From the IMG/VR virus record IMGVR_UViG_3300005253_000053: a DNA stretch of 26,758 nt. The stretch is one strand, 5' to 3'. Shown here piece after piece: positions 1-25,781 of this stretch. Both the position numbers and the translations under genes were made by a program. Below the pieces are notes generated by a model, which was given only the letters and a program-made list of their open reading frames with translations, was not told the origin of the DNA and searched no databases. Origin of the DNA: a virus. Its lineage: Duplodnaviria > Heunggongvirae > Uroviricota > Caudoviricetes. The number at the start of each line of letters is the position of its first letter. Positions within the stretch are counted from its first letter, which is position 1.

Positions 1-225
1 CTTAGGCTCCTTCGGCTTGATCGCCTCGATGACCTTTCGGCACAGAGCCTCTGCCTGTGCCAGCGAGATCAGACCGTGCGGGGCACTGGTGTACATCGAG
101 CCACTGTCCGTTACGATGGTCCAGCTTTTGACAAAATGTGGCCCGAGCAACGACGCCCCCATTATATCGTAGCGAACGGTGTATCCGTCGATTTCAGCCT
201 CTCTGACGATGTGGGGCTCGATCAT
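1..225 (-). CDS. Hypothetical protein, 3' end lies beyond the left window edge. It is not in the supplied ORF track because no stop codon falls inside the window.
   Basis: Hand translation of the minus strand from the ATG at 225-223 gives MIEPHIVREAEIDGYTVRYDIMGASLLGPHFVKSWTIVTDSGSMYTSAPHGLISLAQAEALCRKVIEAIKPKEPK... The frame stays open to position 1. An AGGAGA Shine-Dalgarno sits 7 nt upstream, immediately after the TAG of the preceding gene (242-244). The composition looks protein-like. Confidence 0.45.
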   Translation of the reverse strand, partial: MIEPHIVREAEIDGYTVRYDIMGASLLGPHFVKSWTIVTDSGSMYTSAPHGLISLAQAEALCRKVIEAIKPKEPK

Positions 226-241
226 GGTCTGTCTCCTGTCC

Positions 242-8215: not shown

Positions 8216-11200
8216 TAACCGATGTCCTCCGGATCAATTCTCGTCAGTTCGACGAGCGCAATGGTGGCTATCTGGTTGTCCAGAATGGGGATCGTCTCGT
8301 CCGCCTCCAGGACCGCCGTATAGCTGACCAGGATCTGCGTGCCCAGCACGGGGTTATCGTTGAAATTGAAGTCAAACACCCCTGTGTCGTAGTCGATGAA
8401 GTTCTTTCCGATGGCCGCGTCCACAGCACCCTTCAGTCCAGAGTCCCCATCGTCCCGGACCGTCATTAGGTTTCCTGACGTACTGAGTGCGGTGAATACG
8501 GTGCGGCCCCGTTTGAGAATCTTGAACCGGGTCGTGCCCTGGATGCGGAGGACCGTCGGGTCTCCCGTGCCCACCTGCTCGGCCACTCGCACAAATTCGT
8601 ACGGGAATCGGAAATCGGCAATGATCAGTTCGCCGTTGATGGGAATCGGGCTCAAGGCCACATCGAAGTTGCCGCCCAGGGCCTGATCGTAGCGGTAGAA
8701 GAACCGTTCCCCGATGAAGGGGCCGTTGTCGAGTGTCAGGTCGAACTCACCTGCCCGGGCTGTCCGATAGGTCACACCCGAGGTGACCAGAACTGCTGAG
8801 GCAGCGAACGTCAGATTGAAAGCTCCTGCGAAGACCTCGTAGGTCGCTGTAAACTGGAGCGACCCGACAGTCTGGGCAACCAGTACGACGATGACCTCTC
8901 CGGTCGCGTAGTTGATCGACGAGAGGGCCAGATCCGAGTCGCCTGGGGCGTCTGTAGAAGCGCCATCCCTGGTGAATAGGCCTGAGAAGTCTGTCGGAGC
9001 CGCATCGGTCAGGACGAGCAGGCCATTCGTGTGCGTGATCCTGATCTCAATCGGCGTCGTAGGGCCGAGCGTACCCACGAGGTTCTTGATGTTGTTCATC
9101 AGGAACCCGGTGTAGGTATTCTTGCCCACTACTGGGACGTCAATTTGCTCAACAACCACGTTGGACTCCAACGTGAGCGTCGTATCTTCGTAGAAGATCC
9201 GATTCTTTCCGATCCCGTTGATGTCGCCAATCAGCGTGCCTTCTCCGTTCTGAACAGATCCCACGTCCGTAATCGTCTGGCTGCCGTCGGTGAATACGGA
9301 CCGGCCTGCCCGAATGAACGGGAAGGTATTACCCAGGCGGCCCCGGAACTGAGTGTTTCCCGAGCCCACCACGACCCTGGAAGCCAACTCCTCGGCCTGC
9401 GTGAGCAAGTCATCGTAGAGAATCGTGTTGGCTTCGGCTCGGGTGTCCCCCGTGTCGATGGCACCAATCAGATCCCCGCTACCGTCATCGATCACCACGT
9501 CCTGGCGGTACACAAACGTAACCGCGTCCGCCCTGACCGGAGTGTTCGTGGGCTGCTCGACCTGTTTCTCATCAGCAAACCCGCTGTCGATGACATAGAA
9601 GGCGAATACGGCGGCCGAGGTCGCCGACGCGAAGCCACCTGCGGCCATCTCGAACGCGCCTGTGCCGTAGGTGATCGATCCAACGATGGGGTACGCGGCG
9701 ATGGTGCTGTTTCCGCCACGCCGCAGGAAGCCCGCCCCGTCGTCGTACAGGAACTGGAAACCGTCTGTGATGATGAGCGTACCCAACGACGCGGTCGCAT
9801 CGAAGTCTACGAGCGTGCCAGAGTACATCGTCGCCCCGGCTGCGCCCACCGACTCAACCTTCTGGTTGAAGAACGGGGTGAAGAAGCGAGGCCCGGACGA
9901 TCCAGCACCGCTGACAGGACCTCCGCCGACGACGTTGGGCTCCGTGTTCTGAAATACGTCGTCGTAGATGATCGCATTGGCTGCGCCGCCCCCAGTGTTT
10001 CCCGTCAAGCTGCCAAGCTGGTCATCGACGACCTTGTTGACGCCCCAGTTAAGCTGGAACGTGCCTCGAAGAACGGGCGATCCCAACACCGGATCGGTGC
10101 CGATGAACTCTTCCGTACGGTACCTGGAGCGGATGCCGTCGCCCGTGGCATAGGTCGCACGGCTCCGCTCCGATGTACGGAGGTTCGTGATCTCGACGTA
10201 GCTCACGCCGATAACCGACTGCATGACCGTGCACAGAAGCGACTCGTGGATGTCGACGCCCGGTAGAACCTGAGTCGACTGGAAGAAGGCGATAACCACC
10301 TGCCGGACTTCTTCCAGGATGGATGCCACGTCCAGGTTGGGAAGAATCGCCACCCTGGCAAACACGTCCACGTGAATCGTGACGCCGCCCTCGGTCACGA
10401 TGAGGTGGGCGATGTCCGCGCGGCTGTCGATGAACGTCCCGACCGTGTCCCGGAAGGCCTGGGGAGCAGCGAGTACGCGCCCCTCGGTGTCCCGCGTCCA
10501 GATGATCAGGTCGACTTGATTGCTCTCGGGGAAATCCAGATGCAGATCCGCTTTCCCGAAGGCCACTGCGCCAAACGTGGGGTGGACAAACGTGTTGATC
10601 AGCGCGTCGTAATCGTCTTGAGTGACGGCACGACCCGTGGATGCCGCGACCTTGGGAGCGAACAGGCGCGCGTGGTCGACGGTTTCAGCCTCTTCTCCGC
10701 CTGCACCCGCCTCCTGGTTCTGGAGACGGACATCGACCGGGTCGTTGGTCGTGACCAGAAAGCCCCGGATGGACGTATCGATCTGTCCGATATCGATGTT
10801 GCCCCGAAGACCGCCCCCAACCTTGTAGTCGACGGTAATTTCTTCGCCATCGGGCGGGATGATCGCGCCCTTGTCGTCACCAAATCGGACCGCGAGCAGG
10901 CCGTCCGGCTCGATGGTAAGCTGGTAGCGCTCCTGGGGACCGATGACGTTGTAGGTCATCACGATCAGTTCGTCGAGCGCCGGGATCGCGCCTTGCACGT
11001 CATCGCCGAACACGACCGTACCGGCCCCAGTATTGGCATCCACGTCCAGCACGAAGACGTTGTCCGTTGGTCCGGACAGCAGGAAGTCGTCCACCTGGGT
11101 GAAGATCACCGACGTGTTGGGGTCATTCCCGACTGAGACCCGGAAGTTGTCCCGGCGCGGGTGCAGCTTGGTCAATAGGAACGAGAAGTCCGGCGTCCCC

Positions 11201-11901
11201 GGAGACGTGATCGTGTCACTCTCGAATCCGAAGCCTTCGCTGAAGACAAGAGAGTCGGCCCGTTCCCACTGCTTGGCCGCAATCGTGACGACAACCGACG
11301 CGTCCGTAACATCCTGATCCGGAATAATGAGCTTCTGGAAAGGCGTACCATCAGAAACGAAGATGGACTGCCGGGGATCTCCTTCGACAGCGATGATTTT
11401 GGTGGACGAATCCGCCTGCGGGAAGGCCGCTGCGTTCTCATCGATGATGACCGTGTCTGAAAGTTGCCAGACCGTGCCGTTACGAGCCGTAAACCGAGTC
11501 TCCGCGTCCAGGCGAATCTTCGCTGGCTGCGCCGGGTTTGGGAAGGCAGTGATATTCACGCTCGCAGACGTGGCCGAGCGCATGAGGTAGTTCAGGCCAG
11601 CCGTCAGGCGGCGCATACCCGTGAGCGTCCTGGCGGTCGGGAAGAAGAACTCGTTGGCAAAGCTGTCGATATAGAAGGACATCTGGGCGTGGGAGTACGC
11701 CACAACGTCCACCAGGGCGATGCCGATGCCACTGACGTTGAAATCCTTGAACTCCTTCGGAAAGCGCTGACGGATCAGGTCAAGCAGAGCCCGCCGGATA
11801 GACGCAAAATCGCGATCCACCAGGGAGATCCGAGGCTGCGGAATGCCCACGAACTTCGTGATGACCTCCGGCAGAGTGGATCTGAACTCCTGAATAGCCA
11901 C
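8215..11901 (-). CDS. Baseplate J-like protein (P2 gpJ / Mu gp47 / T4 gp6 family), 1228 aa.
   Basis: The N-terminus (…ALVDVVAYSHAQMSFYIDSFANEFFFPTARTLTGMRRLTAGLNYLMRSATSASVNITAF) fits the baseplate-J conserved region. It sits directly after the gp25-like W gene. It contains several copies of the DDG.G.L.G…I.Y..G repeat that is also found in the I-like protein. Confidence 0.65.
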   Translation of the reverse strand: MAIQEFRSTLPEVITKFVGIPQPRISLVDRDFASIRRALLDLIRQRFPKEFKDFNVSGIGIALVDVVAYSHAQMSFYIDSFANEFFFPTARTLTGMRRLTAGLNYLMRSATSASVNITAFPNPAQPAKIRLDAETRFTARNGTVWQLSDTVIIDENAAAFPQADSSTKIIAVEGDPRQSIFVSDGTPFQKLIIPDQDVTDASVVVTIAAKQWERADSLVFSEGFGFESDTITSPGTPDFSFLLTKLHPRRDNFRVSVGNDPNTSVIFTQVDDFLLSGPTDNVFVLDVDANTGAGTVVFGDDVQGAIPALDELIVMTYNVIGPQERYQLTIEPDGLLAVRFGDDKGAIIPPDGEEITVDYKVGGGLRGNIDIGQIDTSIRGFLVTTNDPVDVRLQNQEAGAGGEEAETVDHARLFAPKVAASTGRAVTQDDYDALINTFVHPTFGAVAFGKADLHLDFPESNQVDLIIWTRDTEGRVLAAPQAFRDTVGTFIDSRADIAHLIVTEGGVTIHVDVFARVAILPNLDVASILEEVRQVVIAFFQSTQVLPGVDIHESLLCTVMQSVIGVSYVEITNLRTSERSRATYATGDGIRSRYRTEEFIGTDPVLGSPVLRGTFQLNWGVNKVVDDQLGSLTGNTGGGAANAIIYDDVFQNTEPNVVGGGPVSGAGSSGPRFFTPFFNQKVESVGAAGATMYSGTLVDFDATASLGTLIITDGFQFLYDDGAGFLRRGGNSTIAAYPIVGSITYGTGAFEMAAGGFASATSAAVFAFYVIDSGFADEKQVEQPTNTPVRADAVTFVYRQDVVIDDGSGDLIGAIDTGDTRAEANTILYDDLLTQAEELASRVVVGSGNTQFRGRLGNTFPFIRAGRSVFTDGSQTITDVGSVQNGEGTLIGDINGIGKNRIFYEDTTLTLESNVVVEQIDVPVVGKNTYTGFLMNNIKNLVGTLGPTTPIEIRITHTNGLLVLTDAAPTDFSGLFTRDGASTDAPGDSDLALSSINYATGEVIVVLVAQTVGSLQFTATYEVFAGAFNLTFAASAVLVTSGVTYRTARAGEFDLTLDNGPFIGERFFYRYDQALGGNFDVALSPIPINGELIIADFRFPYEFVRVAEQVGTGDPTVLRIQGTTRFKILKRGRTVFTALSTSGNLMTVRDDGDSGLKGAVDAAIGKNFIDYDTGVFDFNFNDNPVLGTQILVSYTAVLEADETIPILDNQIATIALVELTRIDPEDIG

Positions 11902-11928: not shown

Positions 11929-12408
11929 CTAGTCCACGGTCTGAGCCGACTTGACCGGTAAGAAGGCGTTGATCACCGACTGACGGCTGATGTCCACACT
12001 CATGTTGATCTCTCGCTCGTCGCCTTCTTTGACAAGGAAGATCGACATCGTAATGCGGATCGAGTTCTCATTAGGCTCAACAGCCACGGCCGCCAGCGTA
12101 GCCCGGTCCTCCCAGGTGAAAAACGCCTCCTGGATCGTGGACCGAAGCAAGATCGCGAGAACGTCGTCGCTGGGCTCCCACAGCAGATCCGGAATGAACG
12201 AGCCAAATTCCGGGAACATAACCCGCTCGCCGGGCCGGGTCAGAAGGATCATCTCGATGGCGCTGCGGATGACCTCTTCGTCCGTCTTCGGCGCGAAGGT
12301 GCCCAGAACCGTACCGTCGAACTGGAACGCTATACCCGCAAACGCTTCCCGGGACAGATCAATGTCCGGCTTCAGATTGCGCAGCGGTTCTTGTGCGGTG
12401 TCGGCCAT
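11929..12408 (-). CDS. Baseplate wedge protein, GPW / gp25 family.
   Basis: 159 aa. The segment LTRPGERVMFPEFGSFIPDLLWEPSD matches the gp25/GPW core motif (GER..P.FG......EP). Its position between the V and J homologues fits. Confidence 0.8.
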   Translation of the reverse strand: MADTAQEPLRNLKPDIDLSREAFAGIAFQFDGTVLGTFAPKTDEEVIRSAIEMILLTRPGERVMFPEFGSFIPDLLWEPSDDVLAILLRSTIQEAFFTWEDRATLAAVAVEPNENSIRITMSIFLVKEGDEREINMSVDISRQSVINAFLPVKSAQTVD

Positions 12409-12465: not shown

Positions 12466-13092
12466 CTAGAGCAACAGGTGCACGTGCCCTGAGCCCACGG
12501 CCAGGGTCATGTCAGCAGCCGCCGTAAGGTGGTTGATGATCCCGTTCGAGACCCCCAGACACCAGTCCGATACCCGACTTCCTTCGGTATCCGGATTGAT
12601 ATCCACCGTGATCGTCTTCCCACCTACTTGTACCGTGACCGGCGCAAGCGCCCGGATCTTGGTGAGCATCAGATCCCGCATGCCCGTGCCCACGCCGAAG
12701 CTGAGGAACAGGTGCTTGTGGCTGACGGCTCCGTCCACAAGACTCGTCGTCGTGTTCGCGATCAAGTGTTCCGATACGGCCGCCGCGATGGCCCCGATGT
12801 ACAGCCCGCTGAGACCACCCAGGCCGGGCAGAAACGTGGCCGGGGGCGTGCTCATCGTGGCTGGAACCAGGATCAGAAGCGTGTGCACGTGCGGGAACGA
12901 CCCTGGAGGCGGCGGGCCGGTCCCAGGCGTCATCGTCCCGGCCGTCCACATCGGGATGAATCCACCTGACATGGAGTCCAGCCACTGCCTCTGGATCTGA
13001 GGCTTGCCCTCGCGATCCAGCGGATCGTAATTGAAATCCGCTGGGAAGGCCGCGATGATGGCCTGTGATAACGCGTTGGCGTCTACGGCCAT
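12466..13092 (-). CDS. Hypothetical baseplate-associated protein inserted between the V and W homologues.
   Basis: 208 aa. Its ATG overlaps the stop of the V-like gene (TAATG at 13090-13094), implying co-translation with the baseplate genes. It has a Gly/Pro-rich segment (GTGPPPPGS) and His-containing motifs (HVHTLLI, GHVHLLL). The overlapping alternative frame 12512..13111 is Arg-rich junk. Confidence 0.45.
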   Translation of the reverse strand: MAVDANALSQAIIAAFPADFNYDPLDREGKPQIQRQWLDSMSGGFIPMWTAGTMTPGTGPPPPGSFPHVHTLLILVPATMSTPPATFLPGLGGLSGLYIGAIAAAVSEHLIANTTTSLVDGAVSHKHLFLSFGVGTGMRDLMLTKIRALAPVTVQVGGKTITVDINPDTEGSRVSDWCLGVSNGIINHLTAAADMTLAVGSGHVHLLL

Positions 13093-13778
13093 TAAAGACT
13101 CGCTTTAACATTCACTGATCCCTGGGGGTGCGGCGCACCCGTGAATGGGTCTATGTGCTCGGTCGTGACCACCTGTCCCGTAGCCGGGAGAGCGCCACCA
13201 CCCAGAAGCACGTCGCCCTGGGCGTTCACGTTCACGTTGCCTTGCCGGTCGATGCTGATCTCGTTCCCCTCGGCAGTTTCGGCCTTTATGCCGTCTTTAC
13301 CAACCTCCAGGAAGTCGTCGCCTTCGCTCGTGGTCCTGGTGACCTTGAACGAGTTGTCCGTGAAGTCGATCTGGAGCAGGAAACGGTCCCCAGTCTCGCT
13401 GTCGGTCCGCTGGAGCGTGATTACCTTGTCTCGGGTCTCTCCAGTAGGGTGCTGGTCCGGGAGGCCCTCCTCGCCGTACCAGTAGCCCAGCATGATGGGC
13501 TCCTCGATGAAGCCTAGCTCGAATCCGCAGGCCACCGACGCCCCGACCTCAGGAATGATCACGAAGCCGGTATTCGCCAGACCTCCAAAGGATAGGGCGT
13601 TCTCCGCAAACGGTAGCTCGAAGCTCTCAGGCTGCTCAGGGCCGTGGATCAGGGGAAACCAGACCTTGCACCGGCCCCGGTCTGGCGTACCGGTATCCAC
13701 ATTGTCAATGACGATACCCAGCAGGATGCCGGTCCCGAGGGGGATACCGCCAATTTTGTCCAGATTGCGGGAGACCAT
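13092..13778 (-). CDS. Baseplate spike / assembly protein V (P2 gpV / Mu gp45-like).
   Basis: 228 aa. The segment GIVIDNVDTGTPDRGRCKVWFP aligns with the P2 gpV N-terminal OB-fold motif GIIVETDLNAGRCRVQTGG. It lies between the D-like and W-like genes. Confidence 0.7.
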   Translation of the reverse strand: MVSRNLDKIGGIPLGTGILLGIVIDNVDTGTPDRGRCKVWFPLIHGPEQPESFELPFAENALSFGGLANTGFVIIPEVGASVACGFELGFIEEPIMLGYWYGEEGLPDQHPTGETRDKVITLQRTDSETGDRFLLQIDFTDNSFKVTRTTSEGDDFLEVGKDGIKAETAEGNEISIDRQGNVNVNAQGDVLLGGGALPATGQVVTTEHIDPFTGAPHPQGSVNVKASL

Positions 13779-16186: not shown

Positions 16187-17935
16187 CTACGTCTGCCAGG
16201 GCTTCCGGCTCTTCGACTGATCGAAGTCCGGGTCATTCATCCAACTCTGGTCTTCCGTGTTGTCCGCGATCAACAGCAGCGTGTTCTCGATGGCCTTCAG
16301 GACAGACACCGCGTCTCCACCGCCCGCGCTCGGTGCTCCACCCTTGGCCATGGCAGCAGCCGTGACCGCCGACTGCATCATGCGAACCGCTTCTGAATGT
16401 GGCACATCCTTCCCGAACGGGATGACACCCTCGGTCGTGCCGCCCTCACCGATAACTGCAAGGCGTCCCTCAGGAGTGCCCGTGATCACACCGCCGTGCT
16501 GCAATCCGGGAATATCCATTCCCCGCATGCTCCGCAGCATGTTGCGTTCAAAGGGATCTAGCGTGCCCGCTTTCTCTTTTTTCCGGAGCCGCATTGCCTG
16601 CTTAACTAACTTCATCCGTCCAGCAGCGCTTGAAGTTAGCCCCCCGACACTGCCGGACTCGGCTTTCTTGAAGCCGAGCAACGTAGCTGCGCCCTCAGGC
16701 AGAATCTTCACCGCCTCGTCCCCGACCGCTTTCCAGAGTTCGCTGATTTTCCTCAGGAGCCACGCCGAACCTTGTGGCCACGCCGTGTCTCTGATCCAAA
16801 CGCCGAAGTCGGCGATCTTGTCGCGGACCCAGTTCCCGATAACCGGAGTTATGCCCTTGGCAAACTCCATGATCGCCACGCCCAGAGGAGCCAACAGAGC
16901 GCCGACACCCTTCACGAACACCAGGAACAACCGACCGATGACGGAGAAAATCTCGCCCATGATGCCACCGGCCGGTGCGCCCGCAGTATCCCCACTGAAC
17001 CATCCGCTGACCGTCTTCGCCACAGTGGGCATTGCTTCTCTCTCCGCCCAGTAGAGCACGGAATCCGCCCACGTCTCTAGCTGAGTCATCCCGGTCGTCT
17101 TGAACCAATCCCACCCCGCGCCGATTTTACCCTTAAACGAATCCCAGGAAGTTGCTGCCCAGGTCTTTATGTCCTCCCACGCTGTTTTCGCTTCTTCCTT
17201 ACGGCCGAAAAGAGCTATCCATATCGTCTCAAAACCTTTCGTGATCTTGGGAAGCCACTCTATGACAAACGGCAGCACGTAATTCCTCATCAGCCCCGTG
17301 ACCAGTCGAGTCAGCATCGGCATGAACACAACGATGAACGGGATGAGCAGTATCCGCATCTGCATAAATATGGGCTTCAGCGCGAAATCTATCGCATCCA
17401 TGAGATCCTGGAACAGCTTGAAGAACGGGGCCTTGATGATGGTCGTTATAGGCGACAGCAACGATGTAATCGTGCCGAGCACGCCCTTCAACAGGCGAAG
17501 CGGTATTCCGACGAACCACCTGATGCCGCCGATTATTTTCTTCCAACCTGCTATGAAGAGGCCCCACCGGAAGAAGAACCGGTTGATCGGACCCATGAGC
17601 CTCCCACCCCACAGGCTTGCTTCCTCGGTGGCTTCTTGAACCTCTTGGACGACAGGCCTCAGCTTGGCAATTGTCTCCTGGAGATCCACAAATAGCGGGC
17701 GAAGCATGTCGACGACTGTCTCAATAGCTTCGATGCTGAACAAGTCGCCCACTTGATCCGTCATCTCCGAGAACTTGTTGCTCATCTTCTCGAAGGACGG
17801 AGTGAGCCGGACGCGCACAGACTTGGCAATGGCCTGCCCCATCTGGACAGCCTTAGTCGCGACGTTATCCAGGACGCCAGACACTTGGTCGTCGACCTGG
17901 AGAATCCACCCTATTGCTTGCGCAGCGCCTGCCAC
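16187..17935 (-). CDS. Tail tape measure protein.
   Basis: 582 aa, helical. The central region is hydrophobic and Trp-rich with ~11-residue Trp periodicity (TAWEDIKTWAATSWDSFKGKIGAGWDWFKTTGMTQLETWADSVLYWAE). A Gly-rich segment lies near the C-terminus. The start codon is GTG (17935-17933), preceded by GGGAGG 9 nt upstream. The gene lies between the tube/chaperone region and the baseplate genes. Confidence 0.75.
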   Translation of the reverse strand: MAGAAQAIGWILQVDDQVSGVLDNVATKAVQMGQAIAKSVRVRLTPSFEKMSNKFSEMTDQVGDLFSIEAIETVVDMLRPLFVDLQETIAKLRPVVQEVQEATEEASLWGGRLMGPINRFFFRWGLFIAGWKKIIGGIRWFVGIPLRLLKGVLGTITSLLSPITTIIKAPFFKLFQDLMDAIDFALKPIFMQMRILLIPFIVVFMPMLTRLVTGLMRNYVLPFVIEWLPKITKGFETIWIALFGRKEEAKTAWEDIKTWAATSWDSFKGKIGAGWDWFKTTGMTQLETWADSVLYWAEREAMPTVAKTVSGWFSGDTAGAPAGGIMGEIFSVIGRLFLVFVKGVGALLAPLGVAIMEFAKGITPVIGNWVRDKIADFGVWIRDTAWPQGSAWLLRKISELWKAVGDEAVKILPEGAATLLGFKKAESGSVGGLTSSAAGRMKLVKQAMRLRKKEKAGTLDPFERNMLRSMRGMDIPGLQHGGVITGTPEGRLAVIGEGGTTEGVIPFGKDVPHSEAVRMMQSAVTAAAMAKGGAPSAGGGDAVSVLKAIENTLLLIADNTEDQSWMNDPDFDQSKSRKPWQT

Positions 17936-17938
17936 GAC

Positions 17939-18181
17939 CTACCTCCCTACAATCTGCTTCAGCATATTCTGAATCTGACCGAACAGCCCTTTCCGGCCTT
18001 CGCCCTCTTCCTTCAGATCCTTGTTGAGCCTCCGTACAAAATCGAGCCGCCAGAACGGTGTCATCGCACACCACTCCAGGTAGCTGAGACCGCCGTGCTT
18101 CTTCAACCCGTAGAACTCATCTCTTAGAGCGTCGCCGCTTGGTACTGCCTGGACGAAAAAAGTCAGCCCCCAAGGGCATCA
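17939..18181 (-). CDS. Overlapping +1-frame ORF (~80 codons). It is a candidate frameshift extension of the 18117..18890 product, analogous to E' or GT.
   Basis: The frame opens at a TGA (18181-18179) only 5 codons before a U6 tract (plus-strand aaaaaa at 18156-18161). It overlaps the last 20 codons of the upstream gene. It ends at a TAG (17939-17941), exactly 3 nt before the tape-measure GTG. It has no convincing start of its own: the internal ATG at 18064 has no SD. Confidence 0.3.
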
Positions 18182-18890
18182 TCTGGTGCCAGTAACCCTT
18201 GCATGACTGACAGTTGAACTCCACCTCCAGTTCTGGACCCACGTCGTGGTCGTCCAGGCAGTCCTTTAGTTCAGTATTGTCCATGGCGGCACCCTCTTTG
18301 ACAAATTTGAGCGCCACGTCGAGTTCTACCGATTCCCCATCGACCGCCTGGATTCCCCGAGCGATAGAGTACAGGTAGCCCGGGTCACCCTGCCCAGGAT
18401 TTTCACGTCTCTCTTTCCGGACGAACCGGGTCATCTCACGCTCATCCCTGACACGCATGAGGCGCAGCGCGACGGTCTTACCAGACATCGGAAGATCCAC
18501 GGTGAACGGCTCAGGAGCCTCCGTGCCCTCACGCATGTCGATATCCTTCTTGATATCGAAGTTCAGCGCGTTGTCGAAGTTGCACCGAGGACATGTCACA
18601 TCGAATGAGTAAGGCTTCCCTGGGTAGCTGATCTCCCGCAAGTAGAACAGGAGGGCATACTTGTCGCCGATCAGCATGTCCCCCCAGTCCTCGACCGGGA
18701 GATCGGACACCAACTGTTGTAGAACTTGGTCTGTTACTTCGGGGAAGGTTTGAGGGTTGGCGTCCGCCAGAAGGGCTTCTTGTCCACCTCTGATGTGCGT
18801 CAAGACCACTCGCGACTTCCCGGACTCGTAGTACCGGCCACCGCTGGGAAGATCCGCAGGGTAACCGTTCGTCGCCGGGGATTCCGACAT
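18117..18890 (-). CDS. Acidic protein with two CxxC motifs. It is a candidate tail-assembly chaperone, sitting in the slot P2 uses for gpE.
   Basis: 257 aa, rich in D and E. It carries TCPRCNF and NCQSCKGYW, suggesting a zinc ribbon. An AAGGAGAGA SD lies upstream. It is located just before the tape measure and is followed by the overlapping +1-frame ORF. Confidence 0.4.
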   Translation of the reverse strand: MSESPATNGYPADLPSGGRYYESGKSRVVLTHIRGGQEALLADANPQTFPEVTDQVLQQLVSDLPVEDWGDMLIGDKYALLFYLREISYPGKPYSFDVTCPRCNFDNALNFDIKKDIDMREGTEAPEPFTVDLPMSGKTVALRLMRVRDEREMTRFVRKERRENPGQGDPGYLYSIARGIQAVDGESVELDVALKFVKEGAAMDNTELKDCLDDHDVGPELEVEFNCQSCKGYWHQMMPLGADFFRPGSTKRRRSKR

Positions 18891-20166: not shown

Positions 20167-20706
20167 TTACTCCTCGTCCTCGAAGATGTAATTATCCATC
20201 ACGAAGGTGTACTCAAGCTGGACCGGGTTGTTATTTTCGTAGTCCAGTGTCCGGGCCGGGATGAGGGTGTTGGGCCAGATCCCGATGAGACGCCATTCGC
20301 GTTCCAGCGAACCGTCCGGTCCGAAGTAAACCAGAGCGCCGCTGGACTTGATCTGGGAACTGAAACCGCTGAAGCCGGTCGTCAGGTCGTGAACCAGCTT
20401 CGACCAGCGGTGCAGCATGTCGTAGACCTGAACATCCACGTAATCGTGCACGGTCACAGTCAGATCACCCGGCTCATCCGGCTTCGTCGGAACCTTGGCG
20501 TATCCGGCCAAGTACGAAATCGTCGCCTGCCCCATGGTCCGGATCGGCAACGCCACCGCCTTGACCGCCAGCATGAGCGTCGTCAGATCACCCTGCGCAT
20601 CGGCAGGGAAGTTGACCTGTAGAACGCCAGCACCGTCGCGCTGGGGCTCGAAACCCCCAGCCTGCGAGGCAATGTGGCTGGCAAGTAGATCATTCGGAAA
20701 GGCCAT
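20167..20706 (-). CDS. Tail tube protein.
   Basis: 179 aa, located immediately after the sheath gene. A GAGGAGGAG SD lies 6 nt upstream. The size and position match P2 FII / T4 gp19. Confidence 0.65.
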   Translation of the reverse strand: MAFPNDLLASHIASQAGGFEPQRDGAGVLQVNFPADAQGDLTTLMLAVKAVALPIRTMGQATISYLAGYAKVPTKPDEPGDLTVTVHDYVDVQVYDMLHRWSKLVHDLTTGFSGFSSQIKSSGALVYFGPDGSLEREWRLIGIWPNTLIPARTLDYENNNPVQLEYTFVMDNYIFEDEE

Positions 20707-20750: not shown

Positions 20751-22706
20751 CTAGGCCGCAAGGATCTCGTTGAACGAGGCTCCAGCCGGGGTCAAGATGA
20801 ACTCGATGACGATCTGCTCCGCTGCCTTCGTCGGCTGGAGGAAGATCTGTCCCACAGCCCGGTTGTTGTTCTCGTCGGCGGACGTGGTCGTTGTCTCGTC
20901 CATTCGGACAAGGAATCGGCGCACCCCGCGCCGGGCCTGGACACTGTCCATGAACGGCCGGATCAGCATCCGCCACTGGCGGAACAAGGTCGGGTCGAGC
21001 GGATCGAACAGCAGGAACCGGCTGCTCGACGCGATGACCTTCTCGATGGTGATCAGAAGACGGCGCACGTTGATACGGTCGAGCGCCGTGGCCTGCCGCT
21101 GCGTGGTCCTCTGGCCGAACAGAGCGATGCCCTGGCCTCGGAAGTTGACCCACGGGTTGACGATGTTCTGGACCGTCCCGTCGTTGCCCTGAAGCTGTTC
21201 GCGCTCGGCGAGGATCGGGCTATACGTGATGTCCTCGATGAACGAGGGCGCACCACGGATGAGTCCGGCCGGGGCGAACCAGGGCTCGGTCAGCGCGTCG
21301 GTGAGGGCCATGATGCTCGCGTGTGCACCCTCGGACGAGGTCCAGACGCTCGTATCGTTGAGCGAATCGAAGGTCCTGATCCACTGGAAGATCAAGGTCG
21401 TGTAACTGGAGTTCAGCGACGCGAGCGGCGGGAACGGAACCGTAACCTCGGGCGTGAACACGCCGTTGGTCCAGTCGATGATCTCCGCCACAGTGAGATC
21501 GAACGGTGTCGCAAGCAGCCCGAGAGCATCGGCCCGGCCGCCCGGCGGCTCGATGATGGTCTCGATCTCCTGGACGACCTGCCGGTGGAACTGCCCGGGC
21601 GCGGCCAGGATGTTGATGTCGATGGCCTCGTTGTTTTTGAAGGCCTGGAGGCCCGTGAAGATGTTGCCCGACTGGGTTCCGATGACGTCGGATACCGTCA
21701 GGCCGCCTTCGAGGCCGATCTCCTGGTCCGAGGTGACGTCCGGTTCGGACGTATTGGTCGTCACGTCTTCCAACCGGATAAAATTCGAGCCATTATTGAC
21801 CTGGATAATCAGGTCGGCCTTGTCCACTGCCAGGAACGTCTCGCCTGCGACAACCCCTGACTTATACCGGCCTTCGAGTTTCAGCGGCGTAGCCGGGGTG
21901 CTGATGGAGTTGTCGCTGACCTTGACGAAGAAGCCCTGGTCCAGCGGCGTGCTCTTGTTGCCGATGTCTCCTTCCTGGATCGACCGGATGCGGATCGTGG
22001 CGGCCGTGGTGGCGTCCACGATGTGCGGGCTGCTGGCCGTGCCCTGGCTCTTCCCGAACAGACCATCGTCGCCGCCAGCCATGAAGACGGCGATCAACTG
22101 GGCCGTGATCGGGTCCAGCGTCTGGCCCGGAGGCGTGCTGATGTCCAGAACCTGAACCGTGACCACGGTGGAGATCCCGTTGATCGCGTTCTCGACCGTG
22201 GACTGACTGACGTTCAGGTACTTCTCGACCCGGGCGTTGTTTTCCTGGATGAAGACATTGTAGTTCGTGGGGCTGACGGCCTCGATGGTGATGCCGATGT
22301 TGCCGTTCGCGGCGGTTCCCGGCGTGAGCGCCGAGAAAGTCAAGACATTCGTGCCACCCGCGTAATAGGTGCCGTCATCGTCGATGGATACCGTAGCGGT
22401 GGCGAGGTTTGTACCCGCCACGCGCATGACGAAGAGAGACGACCCATTCGTCAGGTAGTGCTTGCTCTCGTAGGACATCTGGGTGCCGCCGATGGGCACC
22501 CCGTCGGTGTCGACCGCCTCGGAGGGGGCCGGGGGACCGAAGGTCCGGTCGAACTGAGGCTGGCTGTTGATCAACGTCAGTTCGTTGACCGCACCCTTTG
22601 TCGCGGCCCCAACAACGCCATAAACGGCCGTGGAGACTCTGCTGATGAAGGCGCTGAAGTCGCGCTCGTCGACAAAGGTGCCTGCACTGACAAAGGCAAC
22701 ACCCAT
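20751..22706 (-). CDS. Tail sheath protein.
   Basis: 651 aa. A GGAGGAGAG SD is present. The N-terminus (GTFVDERD) and the C-terminal domain (…VGQIFLQPTKAAEQIVIEFILTPAGASF) are typical of contractile sheath proteins. It is followed by the tube gene. Confidence 0.8.
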   Translation of the reverse strand: MGVAFVSAGTFVDERDFSAFISRVSTAVYGVVGAATKGAVNELTLINSQPQFDRTFGPPAPSEAVDTDGVPIGGTQMSYESKHYLTNGSSLFVMRVAGTNLATATVSIDDDGTYYAGGTNVLTFSALTPGTAANGNIGITIEAVSPTNYNVFIQENNARVEKYLNVSQSTVENAINGISTVVTVQVLDISTPPGQTLDPITAQLIAVFMAGGDDGLFGKSQGTASSPHIVDATTAATIRIRSIQEGDIGNKSTPLDQGFFVKVSDNSISTPATPLKLEGRYKSGVVAGETFLAVDKADLIIQVNNGSNFIRLEDVTTNTSEPDVTSDQEIGLEGGLTVSDVIGTQSGNIFTGLQAFKNNEAIDINILAAPGQFHRQVVQEIETIIEPPGGRADALGLLATPFDLTVAEIIDWTNGVFTPEVTVPFPPLASLNSSYTTLIFQWIRTFDSLNDTSVWTSSEGAHASIMALTDALTEPWFAPAGLIRGAPSFIEDITYSPILAEREQLQGNDGTVQNIVNPWVNFRGQGIALFGQRTTQRQATALDRINVRRLLITIEKVIASSSRFLLFDPLDPTLFRQWRMLIRPFMDSVQARRGVRRFLVRMDETTTTSADENNNRAVGQIFLQPTKAAEQIVIEFILTPAGASFNEILAA

Positions 22707-23441: not shown

Positions 23442-23810
23442 TTACACCGCAGCAACAAAGACCGCGAGAGCCGCCTTGGCCGCCCTGGCCATGAACGCCT
23501 TCGCGACGTCTCCCAAGATCTTCTTGGCGCTCGCTTTGGCCTTGTTGATGGCCTCCTGCTGGTCTGCCGCCACTTCCAGGATCTTCGCCGAGGCCTGCAT
23601 CTTCTTGATGTTCAGGCTCGGGTCCGCTTGCTTCCCGCCCAGAACCTCGATAACCGCCAGGGCCGCTGCGGCTTTGACAGCGTCCGCCGGTAAGTTCTTG
23701 AGCGAGTCGGCATTCTGTGCCTTCCAAACGTCAGCGGCGGCTTTCAGTTCCGCTCGCAGTTCCTCTGGGTTGAACAGTGCCTTCAGTTCATCGGTCTTGG
23801 CCATCTCCAC
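23442..23810 (-). CDS. Ala/Lys-rich small protein with a C-terminal hydrophobic tail. It could be a holin-like or membrane-anchored protein.
   Basis: 122 aa, amphipathic and helical. The last ~15 residues are hydrophobic (AAKAALAVFVAAV). Confidence 0.4.
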   Translation of the reverse strand: MEMAKTDELKALFNPEELRAELKAAADVWKAQNADSLKNLPADAVKAAAALAVIEVLGGKQADPSLNIKKMQASAKILEVAADQQEAINKAKASAKKILGDVAKAFMARAAKAALAVFVAAV

Positions 23811-23833: not shown

Positions 23834-24109
23834 CTATGGGGACGTACTGCCCTCTTCCGGCGGGGTGTACACGCGGTTCAAATTGTCCCAGGCCTTCGCA
23901 TTGGCCTCCAAGAATGCTTTCTGGTCGTCGGCTTTGTAGTCCTTCCAGTTGTCTCGGGCGGACGCGGACGACTCGGTGGCCGCCTTCACGGCAGGCTGCT
24001 GGAGCTTGTAGACCGGAAGCGAGATCGGGCCACCCTTCAGCCAAGCGCACCCTCCCATCGTGAAGGGCACCAGGACGAGGAGGCTGAGAAGCAGGCCGAG
24101 CTTACGCAT
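23834..24109 (-). CDS. Small secreted protein or lipoprotein.
   Basis: The ORF track starts at 24127, but an AAGGAGA SD sits 7 nt upstream of the internal ATG at 24109. From that start the N-terminus is MRKLGLLLSLLVLVPFTMGGCAW, a signal peptide with a Cys in a lipobox-like position. The mature part is ~70 aa and hydrophilic. Confidence 0.5.
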   Translation of the reverse strand: MRKLGLLLSLLVLVPFTMGGCAWLKGGPISLPVYKLQQPAVKAATESSASARDNWKDYKADDQKAFLEANAKAWDNLNRVYTPPEEGSTSP

Positions 24110-24176: not shown

Positions 24177-24488
24177 TCACCCGAGGTAGATCTTGAGCCC
24201 CCACATGATCGCGCTGATCAGACCGCCGCCCAGCGCCGCGTAGACGCTGACGCGGACTTTGATGCCCGTGATCTCGCGCTTCAGTTCCTGGATCTCACCG
24301 CGAAGAACCTCGATCTTGCTGTCGGTCCCCTCTTTCTGGGTACCGGCCTTTGCGGTCAGATCCTCCAACCACTTTTGGAACCGCTCAAGCTCGTGCAGAA
24401 CGAGTTCGCGGTATTCGTTCCAGCTACGTTTCGCCATCCGGGAAGTCCTCGCTTTGGATTTCCTCATCCAGGGCGAGGAGTCGGTCAA
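24177..24488 (-). CDS. Small protein with a basic N-terminus, a coiled coil and a single C-terminal transmembrane helix.
   Basis: 103 aa. The C-terminus VYAALGGGLISAIMWGLKIYLG is a transmembrane segment. The coiled-coil heptads include EVLRGEIQELKREITGIKVRV. It overlaps the preceding gene by ~20 codons. Confidence 0.45.
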   Translation of the reverse strand: MTDSSPWMRKSKARTSRMAKRSWNEYRELVLHELERFQKWLEDLTAKAGTQKEGTDSKIEVLRGEIQELKREITGIKVRVSVYAALGGGLISAIMWGLKIYLG

Positions 24489-24936
24489 GGCCGACGCGCG
24501 ACATCACATCTGCTGGGACGCCCGCCTTTTTCAGGACGCGCGTCTGTTGGGCCTCTCGGCGTTGAGCAGCATGAATCACCACGCGAGGGAGCGTGCCGTT
24601 TCCGATCTCCTGCCTGTCCAGAAAGTCCTGAGCCCCCGCACGCATGGCGTTGTGAAGTTGTTTTTCGTCAACTCCTTCGGCAATGACGACCACCGCAGGG
24701 TGGTGATGGTGTGCACTCACCGCTTCGATGAACTTGAGCAGTGCATCGTCCATGGCTTGCTGGATGATGATCACGTCCACAGGCGTCTTCTCGATCCTGG
24801 CGTACGCTCTCTCCGGCCGTTGGATGACCTCCACGTCAAAGCCCTTCCCTCGGCGCGCGAACAGCGACTCAAGGTGAGCAGAGCACGGAGACTGCGCAGC
24901 CCCCACGAGCATGACCGAGATTGAATTGTTTTGCAT
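24424..24936 (-). CDS. CheY-like receiver (REC)-fold protein with a degenerate active site (a pseudo-receiver).
   Basis: 170 aa. The five beta/alpha units align with CheY: VMLVG, FDVEVIQ, VDVIIIQQAMDD, AVVVIAEG, AMRAGAQDFLDR. The phospho-acceptor residues are substituted: DD to GA, D57 to Q, T87 to I, K109 to R. Confidence 0.5.
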   Translation of the reverse strand: MQNNSISVMLVGAAQSPCSAHLESLFARRGKGFDVEVIQRPERAYARIEKTPVDVIIIQQAMDDALLKFIEAVSAHHHHPAVVVIAEGVDEKQLHNAMRAGAQDFLDRQEIGNGTLPRVVIHAAQRREAQQTRVLKKAGVPADVMSRVGLDRLLALDEEIQSEDFPDGET

Positions 24937-24953: not shown

Positions 24954-25781
24954 CTAGGTGTTGCCGAGACCTGTAGCACCGTTCAACACGAGGCCCCCGG
25001 CCGTCATGTTGCTAATGGCATGCGTAGTGCCGGGCGTCCCAGACGCGAAGAGTATACCAGAGCCTCCGAAGGCCCCGTGGCAGATGTTCGTCGCGACCAG
25101 ATTCTGCCCGGCCACCGAGTCGATGCCGATGCCGTGGCCTGGAGTACCGCCGACAGCGGAGATGTTATTACCCAGAACCTGGATGAAGTCGCGCGTGACC
25201 GCAACCCGGATGCCAAAGGTCGTCGCCCCGTCGCCAACAATGATGTTCTCGCTGGCAATGCAAGCGTCCGCGTCGATGAGGATGCCTACGACTGCCGAGA
25301 GTAGGCGGCATTTTTCGACAATGCTCTGAACTCCCGCCAGAGTGATACCGCCACCCGCCCCCGTGACCGCGCAGTTGGTGACCTTGTTCCAGGAGCCTCT
25401 GGCCAGGATGGGCAGGACTTCTGAGAGCAGATCCTCGAAGGTGGTAAACGACTCAACAGTGTCCACCGAAGCCAAAGCGCCGCCGCCTGTGTTTGTGAAA
25501 CCGATCCCGCGAATGCGGGTCTGGTTCATAATGCCGCCGCCGCCTCCAGACACCGAGACGATAGCGGACCCGGCAGCGGCCACGTTCCAGTTGAGCGTGG
25601 TCTTCGTCGGGTCTACCCCCTCCAGCGTCTTGCCCGGAGGCAGCGTGAGCACGGCATCCATGTTGAAGATGCCCTCGCCCAGACGAATGACCGACTCACT
25701 ACCGCCAAGAGCAACCTGAAGCGCAGCCGTGCTCGTGATGATCGCGGGGTCGACCCGAGCAGTTTTTCCAATTGTAAGCAT
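24954..25781 (-). CDS. Gly-rich beta-helix-like protein, possibly a fibre-, adhesin- or lyase-like protein.
   Basis: 275 aa. It contains many G-x-G and N-x-G rungs (GGGGGIMNQTRIRGIGFTNTGGGAL…, NISAVGGTPGHGIGIDSVAGQNLVATNICHGAFGGSGILFASGTPG). The encoding DNA has native GC. Its start overlaps the stop of the 141-aa gene (TGATG). Confidence 0.45.
   Translation of the reverse strand: MLTIGKTARVDPAIITSTAALQVALGGSESVIRLGEGIFNMDAVLTLPPGKTLEGVDPTKTTLNWNVAAAGSAIVSVSGGGGGIMNQTRIRGIGFTNTGGGALASVDTVESFTTFEDLLSEVLPILARGSWNKVTNCAVTGAGGGITLAGVQSIVEKCRLLSAVVGILIDADACIASENIIVGDGATTFGIRVAVTRDFIQVLGNNISAVGGTPGHGIGIDSVAGQNLVATNICHGAFGGSGILFASGTPGTTHAISNMTAGGLVLNGATGLGNT

Follow-up and report, generated by a model that had tools for sequence, protein, structure and literature searches.

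What a phage would do with a receiver domain that has lost its phosphorylation site is the question raised by a small gene in IMGVR_UViG_3300005253_000053, the IMG/VR record of a large, uncultured virus (Caudoviricetes). The stretch of DNA analysed, referred to below as the window, is 26,758 nucleotides long, and its initial annotation described the gene as coding for a CheY-fold pseudo-receiver in the virion/lysis region, which could act as a phosphorylation-independent decoy and sequester a histidine kinase or response-regulator partner of the host.

The Receiver Fold and Its Phospho-Site

The gene (24424..24936, minus strand) has an ATG start with GGAG 9 nt upstream and codes for a 170-residue protein composed of a single receiver (REC) domain and a C-terminal helical extension. 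Residues 25-107 match PF00072 (Response_reg) with 31.3 bits (E=2.5e-7), which places the protein narrowly above the curated gathering cut-off for a REC domain (30.2 bits), a small margin. Built from a 37-sequence alignment, its AlphaFold2 (AF2) model (pLDDT 86.6, pTM 0.76) shows a parallel five-stranded sheet in a doubly wound (beta-alpha)5 fold; beta1 spans residues 6-11, and a long alpha5 (residues 115-137) is followed by an extra helix at residues 142-162. According to DSSP on the model, with codon coordinates checked, the (beta-alpha)5 core including alpha5 (residues 6-137) is encoded by 24526..24921 (minus strand), and the extra helix, alpha6, which carries the clade-conserved residues R147, L150, D151 and L153 in a 7-member alignment, by 24451..24513 (minus strand). 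A Foldseek search of the PDB with the model gave 412 matches at E<=0.001; WspR (3bre), CpaE (4dad) and PleD (1w25) are examples from the best 50, all of them response regulators or atypical receivers. The fold assignment of the initial annotation, for which structure prediction and Foldseek had been proposed as a check, is therefore borne out by Pfam, AF2 and Foldseek, a receiver fold having been obtained and not another one, and the two blocks quoted in its support, VVVIAEG and AMRAGAQDF, are present at residues 82-88 and 97-105, respectively. A GAQD[FY]L motif is also common to this protein and many bacterial receivers with a long alpha5 stalk. The ORF is real, and its product is a REC-fold protein in which the chemistry of phosphorylation has been lost.

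The canonical receiver site is composed of an acidic pair (DD), a phospho-acceptor Asp, a Thr or Ser, and a Lys. Because BLASTP found no pairwise similarity between E. coli CheY and the window protein, these positions were mapped with the help of the structural model and of multiple alignments. None of the five residues is retained: the acid pocket (canonically D/E-D) is G12 A13 (codons GGG GCT, 24898..24903), the phospho-acceptor position is Q59 (codon CAG, 24760..24762), the Thr/Ser position, where beta4 ends, is A86 (24679..24681), and the Lys position is R108 (codon AGG, 24613..24615), all on the minus strand and with their codons checked. Position 59 is Asp in 164 of the 187 aligned REC domains and Gln in the window protein only; at position 108, 175 of them have Lys and 9 have Arg. 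The substitutions previously proposed for the acid pocket, the Asp and Lys109 agree with these alignments, but the residue that corresponds to Thr87 in the alignments and the AF2 model is A86, and not I85 as had been suggested. With the whole five-residue pattern of a phosphorylatable receiver gone, the window protein cannot undergo canonical phosphorylation, as already claimed, and neither HisKA nor HATPase families, which would indicate a cognate histidine kinase or Hpt nearby, were found in the window or in L001, a longer contig. Pseudo-receiver (PsR) or aspartate-less receiver (ALR) domains have been defined elsewhere (PMC12632262, PMC4395418), and under the definitions of PMC12632262 the window protein is, judging by its residues, a pseudo-receiver of the aspartate-less kind.

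Seven loci make up the REC clade (the window, L007, L066, L067, L004, L008 and L005), several of them on very short contigs, and the REC ORF is intact in all of them. None keeps the full site, which reads GA/Q/A/R, GV/W/A/R, GQ/C/A/R, GD/D/A/K, DD/G/S/K, KN/D/S/K and EP/E/G/K across the members, the Asp position alone varying as Q/W/C/D/G/D/E. Mean pairwise identity is low in the beta1-alpha1 loop (0.12), alpha1 (0.19), the beta3-alpha3 loop (0.06) and the beta4-alpha4 loop (0.19), and high in beta5 (0.64), the beta5-alpha5 loop (0.63), alpha5 (0.48) and alpha6 (0.44). The best-conserved surface of the clade (24526..24627, minus strand; mean pairwise identity 0.48-0.64) is made of beta5, the beta5-alpha5 loop (RQEIGNG) and alpha5 (TLPRVVxxAAxRR). 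Nineteen residues are invariant among members that share 26-47% identity, and these are concentrated in beta5, alpha5 and alpha6; the aromatic switch residue, F105, is invariant. The dN/dS of the whole gene is 0.15-0.35, which shows that it is under purifying selection.

In 50,697 GenBank phage records, tblastn found nothing that matched the REC protein, relative P0003 or two partner proteins (see below), and scans of IMG/VR for REC relatives found none. A scan with a REC profile did return 45 metagenome loci, which were rejected as ordinary receivers, sharing the generic REC core only (23-44% identity).

The Overlapping Membrane-Anchored Partner

In all seven loci the REC gene is followed by an overlapping partner gene, which in the window (24177..24437, minus strand) codes for 86 residues with an N-terminal W6-x-E8-Y9-R10 motif, a coiled coil and a C-terminal transmembrane (TM) segment, as deduced from alignments, AF2 and a 154-protein family. 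The REC stop and the partner start overlap by 14 nt (24424..24437, minus strand), and a GAGGA Shine-Dalgarno (SD)-like motif lies at about 24446-24450, inside the 3' end of the REC gene and just upstream of the partner ATG. An identical 14-nt overlap is found in six of the seven REC-type loci; over all seven the overlap ranges from 11 to 14 nt, and an SD-like motif lies inside the REC gene. This arrangement shows two genes that are, by their junction sequences, translationally coupled, a coupling that would mean co-expression and not binding.

The AF2 model of the partner is one continuous helix (residues 3-85, pLDDT 85.8) that runs into the predicted TM segment, which is Gly/Ala-rich and covers about residues 63-86. 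Basic residues flank this segment on both sides (K/R is found within the last 6 residues in 105/120 members), so the topology of the protein is uncertain. The WxEYR motif is invariant across the alignments of the family, which contains at least 154 proteins, all of them on metagenomic and viral contigs and none with a Pfam domain on record. A scan for the motif in 185,579 species genomes gave false positives only, all inside a 502-residue protein, and the family therefore seems to be absent from sequenced cellular genomes at that sensitivity. On inspection by eye, this 502-residue protein was taken for a flavoenzyme of the carotenoid-desaturase type. The partner family seems to be previously undescribed, and the same appears to hold for the REC/partner pair. 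It was also considered that WSEYRRLV, in the partner, could be a degenerate histidine-kinase H-box (HELRTPL) on a DHp-like stub, an idea that was discarded when a comparison with 18 HisKA segments by hhalign yielded a probability of 0.18%.

Partner family genes are almost always preceded by a small PAS or REC gene. In eight other sampled loci (L054, L056, L057, L058/59, L060, L061/62, L068 and L069) a stand-alone PAS-domain gene lies directly upstream of the partner relative and overlaps it by 8-35 nt, except in L056, where there is a 7-nt gap. PAS domains are typical ligand or redox sensors. Their presence in place of REC at eight loci suggests that the slot holds interchangeable small signalling folds and not a specific response-regulator mimic. 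A docking helix motif (L-D-x-L-x-x-L...D) common to REC C-termini and PAS N-termini found no statistical support: in HMM comparisons against 16,000 shuffles the best p was about 0.005 and most comparisons were non-significant.

The explanation that we favour, with moderate confidence, is that the REC protein serves, independently of phosphorylation, as the cytoplasmic subunit of a membrane cassette that consists of two genes and is specific to phages. The partner would be a small single-helix coiled-coil protein with a predicted C-terminal anchor in the inner membrane, and the REC protein may bind or regulate its cytoplasmic coiled coil through the beta5/alpha5/alpha6 face without being phosphorylated, acting as an adaptor or sensor subunit much as the PAS protein would in the sister cassettes.

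A receiver in such a position could still be regulated, its switch being a ligand, a redox change, a metal or a modification at another residue, in parallel with the sensory role to be expected of the PAS proteins. The PAS domain in the equivalent slot is consistent with this, as is a run of four histidines (HHHH) at residues 76-79 of the window protein, and a precedent among aspartate-less receivers is the Cys-based redox sensor RitR (PMC5965902). We consider a switch of this kind unlikely, since no Cys or His is conserved across the 7-member alignment, the histidine run of the window protein included, and no ligand-binding pocket was identified.

Genomic Context

The REC/partner pair of the window lies between capsid and sheath genes: the major capsid gene is about 7 kb upstream of the REC gene (on L001), and the genes downstream include those for the sheath, the tube, the tape measure and the baseplate. 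The location in a virion region is therefore correct, but its designation as a lysis region found no support, as the window yielded no match to endolysin or holin families. The region is all in one orientation with tight gene spacing, and promoter and terminator scans of it gave no signal above shuffle expectation. The next gene (23834..24109, minus strand) codes for a 91-residue predicted lipoprotein (a signal peptide followed by Cys), which is syntenic in L066 and absent from the other REC relatives; it is followed by a gene for a 120-residue helical protein with a hydrophobic C-terminus (23442..23804, minus strand), also syntenic in L066. Both were described from the translations of the window and L066, and no family match was found for either. 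A two-component spanin formed by the partner and the lipoprotein was rejected, as the TM segment of the partner is C-terminal and not N-terminal, and L066 is the one relative that shares the lipoprotein with the window.

This position raises the possibility that the pair is a membrane-associated tail or baseplate assembly factor, either non-structural or a minor virion component, for which the REC or PAS fold would be a mere interaction scaffold. In two PAS-type loci (L058/59 and L061/62) the pair comes directly after sheath, gp19-like tube and T4_baseplate genes, and the co-oriented, tightly spaced region of the window, where promoter and terminator signals stay within shuffle expectation, also fits an assembly role. 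Other contexts differ: the pair is found among helicase, DUF932, NYN, DnaA_C and HNH genes in L004, L005 and L008, beside glycosyltransferase genes in L060/L068, and beside nucleoside phosphorylase, glycosyltransferase and metallophosphatase genes in L069. Proximity to tail genes is thus not a constant feature of the pair, and neither protein is matched by a structural PHROG, which makes an assembly factor rather unlikely.

A connection of the favoured membrane cassette to lysis has been considered in this context. PHROG 1193 'hemolysin' is matched by 7/59 partner relatives (best E=1.1e-4) and a holin PHROG by 3/59; in L067 the pair is followed by a gene for a small 2-TM protein, and in L056 it lies between the genes of a multi-TM protein and a Tlde1-domain protein. 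These matches and contexts, together with an architecture resembling XhlA and the surroundings of a related gene in phage V22 (both compared below), are hints that point towards lysis, but in several relatives the pair sits among tail or replication genes and not lysis genes. As a tentative proposal, the partner could be an accessory holin of the XhlA/gp24.1 kind or another membrane-lesion protein, and the cassette could tune a late membrane event, such as the timing of lysis. A broader and more doubtful generalisation is that large environmental myoviruses carry a modular, hitherto undescribed sensor and membrane-effector cassette. In it, the inner membrane would be perturbed by a coiled-coil protein that is tail-anchored and XhlA-like and is gated by a translationally coupled cytoplasmic domain, usually PAS and in one clade a dead receiver, so that a late event would be coupled to cell physiology. 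If the partner does control lysis or a membrane step, this would be a new way for a phage to read the state of its host cell.

The Proposed Decoy and a Possible Remnant

Helix alpha1 is the main kinase-docking and specificity element of receivers. In the REC clade it is poorly conserved (0.19), a result that bears directly on the decoy put forward initially, according to which a free, phosphorylation-independent receiver would dock on a host histidine kinase or heterodimerise with a response regulator, as a host-takeover or anti-defence function. Variable alpha1 helices could reflect different hosts, the REC fold and its switch residue F105 are intact, and the conserved beta5-alpha5 loop belongs to the kinase-contact surface in known complexes, for example 3dge, which is among the Foldseek matches listed. 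Membrane-bound kinases would, moreover, be adjacent if the partner anchors the REC protein at the membrane, and phage proteins that perturb two-component systems are known, such as PIT4 (PMC10714779). However, the REC gene is always coupled to a membrane partner, the PAS domain in the same slot of eight sampled sister cassettes is left unexplained by a response-regulator mimic, and the gene belongs to a late structural operon and not to the early host-takeover genes. No defence or anti-defence family was matched either, the PADLOC defence models giving noise-level matches only. The pseudo-receiver structure of the proposed decoy is thus upheld, but its function as a kinase or regulator decoy is distinctly unlikely in view of the coupled partner, the PAS domains and the variable alpha1; were it true, phages would have a further, new class of means to interfere with two-component signalling.

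A decaying, functionless remnant of a captured bacterial response-regulator gene, kept only because its 3' end supplies the gene downstream with a start and a ribosome-binding site, would fit the hypervariable active site, the coincidence of the acidic C-terminal tail codons with the partner's GAGGA-like SD and a Pfam score scarcely over threshold, but it is very improbable given the low whole-gene dN/dS, the 19 invariant residues and their concentration in beta5, alpha5 and alpha6, the confident predicted fold and the intact ORF in 7/7 loci.

Comparison with Known Systems

In architecture, the partner resembles XhlA (from PBSX) and gp24.1 (from SPP1), which, in the passages of PMC6316719 and PMC6834076 devoted to them, combine a coiled coil with a C-terminal TM segment and cooperate with a 2-TM holin. 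Like the partner, these proteins have about 85 residues, which form a coiled coil at the N-terminus and one TM helix at the C-terminus, as the sequence of gp24.1 also indicates. Homology in sequence is not evident: hhalign of the partner against gp24.1 gave a probability of 3.7% and no Pfam XhlA match was found at E<=10, although 7/59 partner relatives do match the 'hemolysin' PHROG 1193. No endolysin or holin family accompanies the partner in the window, and no REC or PAS partner for XhlA or gp24.1 is mentioned in those passages.

Among phage receivers, the cREC domain of jumbo phages is a divergent receiver-fold domain of large phages that has never been linked to histidine kinases; it keeps its catalytic aspartates and is linked to genes for NAD+/ADP-ribose and cyclic-nucleotide processing (PMC7824862, Iyer et al. 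2021). The window protein shares with it a divergent receiver fold in a phage, but has lost the Asp, is linked to a membrane coiled-coil protein and has structural genes and small membrane protein genes as neighbours. Another phage receiver is CDS-30 of the cultured Alteromonas phage vB_AmeM_PT11-V22, listed only as 'class II AMG, signaling' (PMC7289586), a CheY-like single-domain REC protein of 149 residues with a C-terminal helix that was found as a structural match in BFVD (E=3e-6). Its gene closes the tail module and has an amidase gene and further genes for small membrane proteins next to it; the gene that follows, with which it shares 32 nt, codes for a small coiled-coil protein of the membrane. 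In contrast to the window protein, CDS-30 retains DD/D/S/K, a complete site, scores 79 bits in Pfam and shows no similarity to it in sequence by tblastn, and its downstream partner has an N-terminal TM segment and lacks WxEYR.

Bacterial receivers offer two further parallels. WspR (3bre, the top Foldseek match), PleD (1w25) and the NtrC1-type protein 1ny5 have in common with the window protein a long helical alpha5 stalk, and they dimerise via alpha4-beta5-alpha5 and a coiled-coil linker, whereas the window protein has no output domain after the stalk and no phospho-site. The best PDB matches in sequence (E about 0.02-0.03, residues 9-107) are the N-terminal atypical receivers of CpaE/TadZ (4dad, 4dn6, 4lda; TadZ_N), which also match in structure (TM 0.78, target-normalised; rmsd 2.3 A; 24% identity) and which are likewise phosphorylation-independent and used in protein interaction or localisation. 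The window protein scores 18.8 bits against TadZ_N (PF16968), below the cut-off of 26.4, and, unlike CpaE/TadZ, it lacks a fused MinD/ParA-type ATPase and has no pilus genes nearby.

The general class to which the window protein belongs is that of the PsR/ALR domains, with which it shares recognition by PF00072, the (beta-alpha)5 fold, the loss of the phospho-acceptor Asp and presumed phosphorylation-free protein contacts. It differs from them in being phage-encoded, in consisting of one domain to which a further helix is added at the C-terminus, in having an obligatory membrane-anchored partner and in the replacement of all five site residues, as opposed to one or two. Pseudo-receivers are common and their mode of action is largely unknown according to PMC12632262, a paper in which the word 'phage' occurs 0 times. 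A phage clade in which the phospho-site drifts, while the beta5/alpha5/extra-helix surface and an obligatory partner are kept, amounts to a natural experiment on phosphorylation-independent receivers.

The receiver fold and its phospho-site

The REC gene runs from 24936 to 24424 on the minus strand, with an ATG start, 170 codons and a GGAG motif 9 nt upstream of the start. Databases list a protein identical to its product as 'hypothetical protein LCGC14_0583730 [marine sediment metagenome]' (longest carrying contig, 224,854 bp). Residues 25-107 match Pfam Response_reg (E=2.5e-7) with 31.3 bits, which narrowly exceeds the gathering score of 30.2. When 1.84 billion cluster representatives were searched exhaustively with HMMER, 429 proteins came out at E<=0.001; apart from four close relatives, they show 25-35% identity and mixed lengths, as ordinary receiver-containing proteins do. 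The AlphaFold2 model (mean pLDDT 86.6, pTM 0.76, from a 37-sequence alignment) contains beta1 (6-11), alpha1 (17-28), beta2 (33-38), alpha2 (41-50), beta3 (55-59), alpha3 (64-75), beta4 (81-86), alpha4 (91-100) and beta5 (104-107), followed by a long alpha5 (115-137) and an additional helix (142-162). Foldseek against the PDB gave 412 matches at E<=0.001, headed by WspR (3bre), the atypical receiver of CpaE (4dad) and PleD. The receiver fold proposed in the initial annotation is supported by the Pfam match, the model and the PDB matches, structure prediction and Foldseek having returned a receiver and not a non-flavodoxin-like fold. The alpha3-beta4 loop carries an HHHH run (residues 76-79; 24700-24711, minus strand), which is not kept in relatives (NHHRRP, THYLQP, SLYQSP) and could, as a sequence feature, be either metal binding or incidental.

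Alignment to E. coli CheY and receivers related to it puts G12 A13 at the acidic pair, Q59 at the phospho-acceptor and R108 at the lysine, and these codons were confirmed directly in the DNA. Of 187 receiver domains that phmmer aligned to the query, 164 have Asp at position 59, where Gln is seen in the window protein only; at position 108, 175 have Lys and 9 have Arg. Both alignments and model place the Thr/Ser position, where beta4 ends, on A86. The earlier claim that every phospho-site residue is replaced thus stands, except that the residue at the threonine position is A86 and not I85. Under the definitions of PMC12632262 the protein counts as a pseudo-receiver and, within that group, as an aspartate-less receiver.

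Conservation within the REC clade

Close relatives are few: protein searches gave P0002 (47% identity), P0003, P0004 and P0013, and two more were read directly from contigs L066 and L067. The L067 gene (126-674, plus strand) had been overlooked by the gene caller, which annotated an antisense ORF in its place (3-566, minus strand, in the public annotation), so protein databases underestimate the size of the family. The window REC gene, in GC-rich DNA (59%), also has an antisense open frame of 221 aa (24259-24924, plus strand).

At the DD/D/T/K positions the clade reads GA/Q/A/R in the window, GV/W/A/R in L066, GQ/C/A/R in L067, GD/D/A/K in L007, DD/G/S/K in L004, KN/D/S/K in L008 and EP/E/G/K in L005. 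None of the seven proteins keeps all five residues together, and the acceptor position is effectively without constraint. The gene itself shows purifying selection in sequence comparisons, with a dN/dS of 0.15-0.35 across the clade (dS being near saturation); a functionless remnant is very improbable. Mean pairwise identity per structural element is low in the active-site loops (beta1-alpha1, 0.12; beta3-alpha3, 0.06; beta4-alpha4, 0.19) and in alpha1 (0.19), and reaches 0.64 in beta5, 0.63 in the beta5-alpha5 loop, 0.48 in alpha5 and 0.44 in the extra helix. The clade has the signature GAQ[DE]F..[KR]Q.IGNGTL.RVV..A..RR, then G......[ST]R..LD.L. Receivers dock on kinases through helix alpha1. 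What selection preserves is therefore the beta5/alpha5 side together with the C-terminal extension, and not the active site or the kinase-docking helix.

A two-gene cassette with PAS or REC upstream

The REC ORF is one of the two genes of a cassette that reaches to 24177. The second, partner gene (24177-24437, minus strand; 86 aa) begins inside the REC gene: its ATG is 14 nt ahead of the REC stop codon, and a GAGGA motif is present within the REC 3' end. This overlap recurs in all seven REC loci (14 nt in six, 11 nt in one). Its gene neighbours vary, being structural in the window, L007 and L066, helicase, DUF932 and NYN genes in L004 and L008, and DnaA_C and HNH genes in L005. In two lower-GC relatives an NYN-domain gene (predicted RNase) comes right after the pair (L004 5206-5883, L008 1063-1197), the two NYN proteins having clearly similar N-termini.

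The partner proteins of the seven loci are homologous: all have an invariant W-x-E-Y-R close to the N-terminus, a coiled coil whose length varies, a basic stretch (L-K-x-K) and a hydrophobic C-terminus rich in Gly and Ala; the AlphaFold model of the window partner is a single unbroken helix (residues 3-85, pLDDT 85.8). A profile search found at least 154 family members at E<=0.001, whose names are hypothetical or meaningless and none of which has a Pfam domain on record. They were seen solely on viral and metagenomic contigs, many of 100-235 kb; the family was not found among GenBank phages, and one genome for each of 185,579 species of bacteria and archaea yielded nothing but false positives when scanned. 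It appears to be a family without earlier description.

Neighbourhoods of partner-family members distant from the window's copy showed that a stand-alone PAS-domain protein (141-180 aa) is encoded directly upstream of the partner in eight sampled loci, overlapping it by 8-35 nt in seven of them (L056 has a 7-nt gap). This type occurs in the IMG/VR contigs L054, L056 and L057, where Pfam PAS families score above their gathering thresholds, and in L058/59, L060, L061/62, L068 and L069; the L058/59 and L061/62 pairs come after genes for sheath, gp19-like tube and T4_baseplate, much as the window pair has structural genes around it. L055, one partner member, has no stand-alone PAS gene directly upstream. 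The signature of the REC-linked subgroup was found in only 4 of 120 listed partner representatives, and PAS plus partner is therefore the common form of the cassette. The REC-linked form is a minor side branch, a receiver having taken the place of PAS there and then lost its phosphorylation chemistry.

Genomic setting

All credible genes in the window are on the minus strand and jointly form a myovirus tail module, with a sheath (20751-22706), a tube (20167-20706), a T4_baseplate-family protein (18117-18890), a tape measure (16187-17935), a Phage_base_V protein (13092-13778), a gp25-like protein (11929-12408), a gp6-like protein (8215-11901) and, at the distal end, a 799-aa protein carrying a Pfam Beta_helix domain (2403-4802). 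L001, a longer contig of the same project, encodes the C-terminal portion of a major capsid protein about 7 kb upstream of the REC ORF. The REC gene thus sits among the late structural genes of a large, uncultured phage, whose sheath has only about 30% identity to that of any cultured phage.

Directly upstream of the REC gene, a 275-aa Gly-rich protein (24954-25781, minus strand), syntenic in L007 and without family match, has repeats that suggest a beta-helix; together with the 799-aa protein it is a candidate fibre, spike or depolymerase protein. Between the cassette and a 236-aa gene upstream of the sheath there are genes for a predicted lipoprotein of 91 aa (signal peptide followed by Cys; 23834-24109, minus strand) and an Ala/Lys-rich helical protein of 120 aa whose C-terminus is hydrophobic (23442-23804, minus strand), both syntenic in L066 and without family match. 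Past the tail-fibre end there are PAPS_reduct-domain (242-1252) and DUF932 (1401-2171) genes, both on the minus strand; a DUF932 gene is also near the pair in L004 (1949-3028), a contig otherwise unrelated to the window.

Possible roles of the cassette

The receiver fold, the purifying selection, the interchange of PAS and REC, the coupled gene pair, the dead phospho-site and the conserved surface are established features of the system. The REC protein would be a cytoplasmic subunit, an adaptor or sensor, working with the cytoplasmic coiled coil of the partner, which it may contact through its beta5/alpha5/alpha6 face with phosphorylation not needed. The long alpha5 is like the dimerisation stalk of WspR-type and NtrC1-type receivers, which makes a helical bundle with the partner plausible.

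Among other explanations, a non-phosphoryl regulatory switch, compatible with this adaptor or sensor model, is rather unlikely. A role in tail assembly is unlikely; the window pair adjoins a tail module, and relatives L004, L005 and L008 carry the pair among other kinds of genes. The initial annotation took the receiver, correctly, to be dead and proposed that it could act as a decoy for a host histidine kinase or response regulator. An intact fold, a retained aromatic switch residue and a conserved beta5-alpha5 loop would fit a decoy, and phage proteins interfering with two-component systems are known (PMC10714779); however, a role within the cassette is the simpler reading, given the obligatory partner gene, the PAS domain in the same slot, the weak conservation of alpha1 and the position among late structural genes. 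A decoy is unsupported and quite unlikely.

Several observations hint at a lysis-related role. Among 59 partner relatives, seven match PHROG 1193 'hemolysin' (best E=1.1e-4) and three a holin PHROG, with 29 matching the uncharacterised PHROG 1103; the partner has the size and architecture of XhlA and gp24.1 (coiled coil and one C-terminal TM). A small 2-TM protein follows the pair in L067, a lipoprotein follows it in the window and L066, and in L056 it is flanked by a multi-TM protein and a Tlde1-domain protein. In phage V22, a canonical CheY-like gene within an amidase/small-membrane-protein cluster shares a 32-nt overlap with a gene for a membrane coiled-coil protein. On the other hand, homology of the partner to XhlA or gp24.1 is not demonstrated, no endolysin or holin family was detected in the window, the pair is among tail or replication genes in several relatives, and basic residues on both sides of the TM leave partner topology unsettled. 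The Tlde1-domain (L,D-transpeptidase-like) protein of L056, a 176-kb viral contig, is encoded at 6250-6687 directly after the PAS/partner pair (27.3 bits, below the 30.1 cut-off) and could be an unusual peptidoglycan-acting lysis enzyme.

Comparison with known systems

As a protein, the REC product belongs with the bacterial pseudo-receivers, a group reviewed without any mention of phage (PMC12632262), and its nearest solved relatives are the atypical receiver domains of CpaE/TadZ. TadZ itself was rejected, since the score is below the TadZ_N threshold and the CpaE/TadZ ATPase and pilus context are missing. The cREC of jumbo phages, tied to NAD+/ADP-ribose processing genes (PMC7824862), was also rejected, because it keeps its aspartates and the REC protein does not. 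XhlA (PBSX) and gp24.1 (SPP1), in which a coiled coil is combined with one C-terminal TM, kill only alongside a 2-TM holin (PMC6316719, PMC6834076). A limited literature search found no description of a PAS/REC plus tail-anchored-helix cassette, which appears not to have been described previously and offers a small, conserved and testable system.

Phage CheY-like genes had been annotated only as 'signaling' auxiliary genes (PMC7289586), the V22 REC gene being listed there only as a 'signaling' AMG. The CheY-like protein of the cultured myovirus Alteromonas phage vB_AmeM_PT11-V22 (MN877442; locus L070, cluster 24959-27038) is a structural match to the REC protein in BFVD, but its receiver is canonical. 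The cluster comprises an amidase, a protein with an N-terminal TM and a coiled coil, the CheY-like REC (149 aa, full DD/D/S/K), a 136-aa protein overlapping it by 32 nt, again with an N-terminal TM and a coiled coil, and, farther downstream, a small 2-TM protein, making V22 a tractable system for the role of receivers in phage late or lysis regions.
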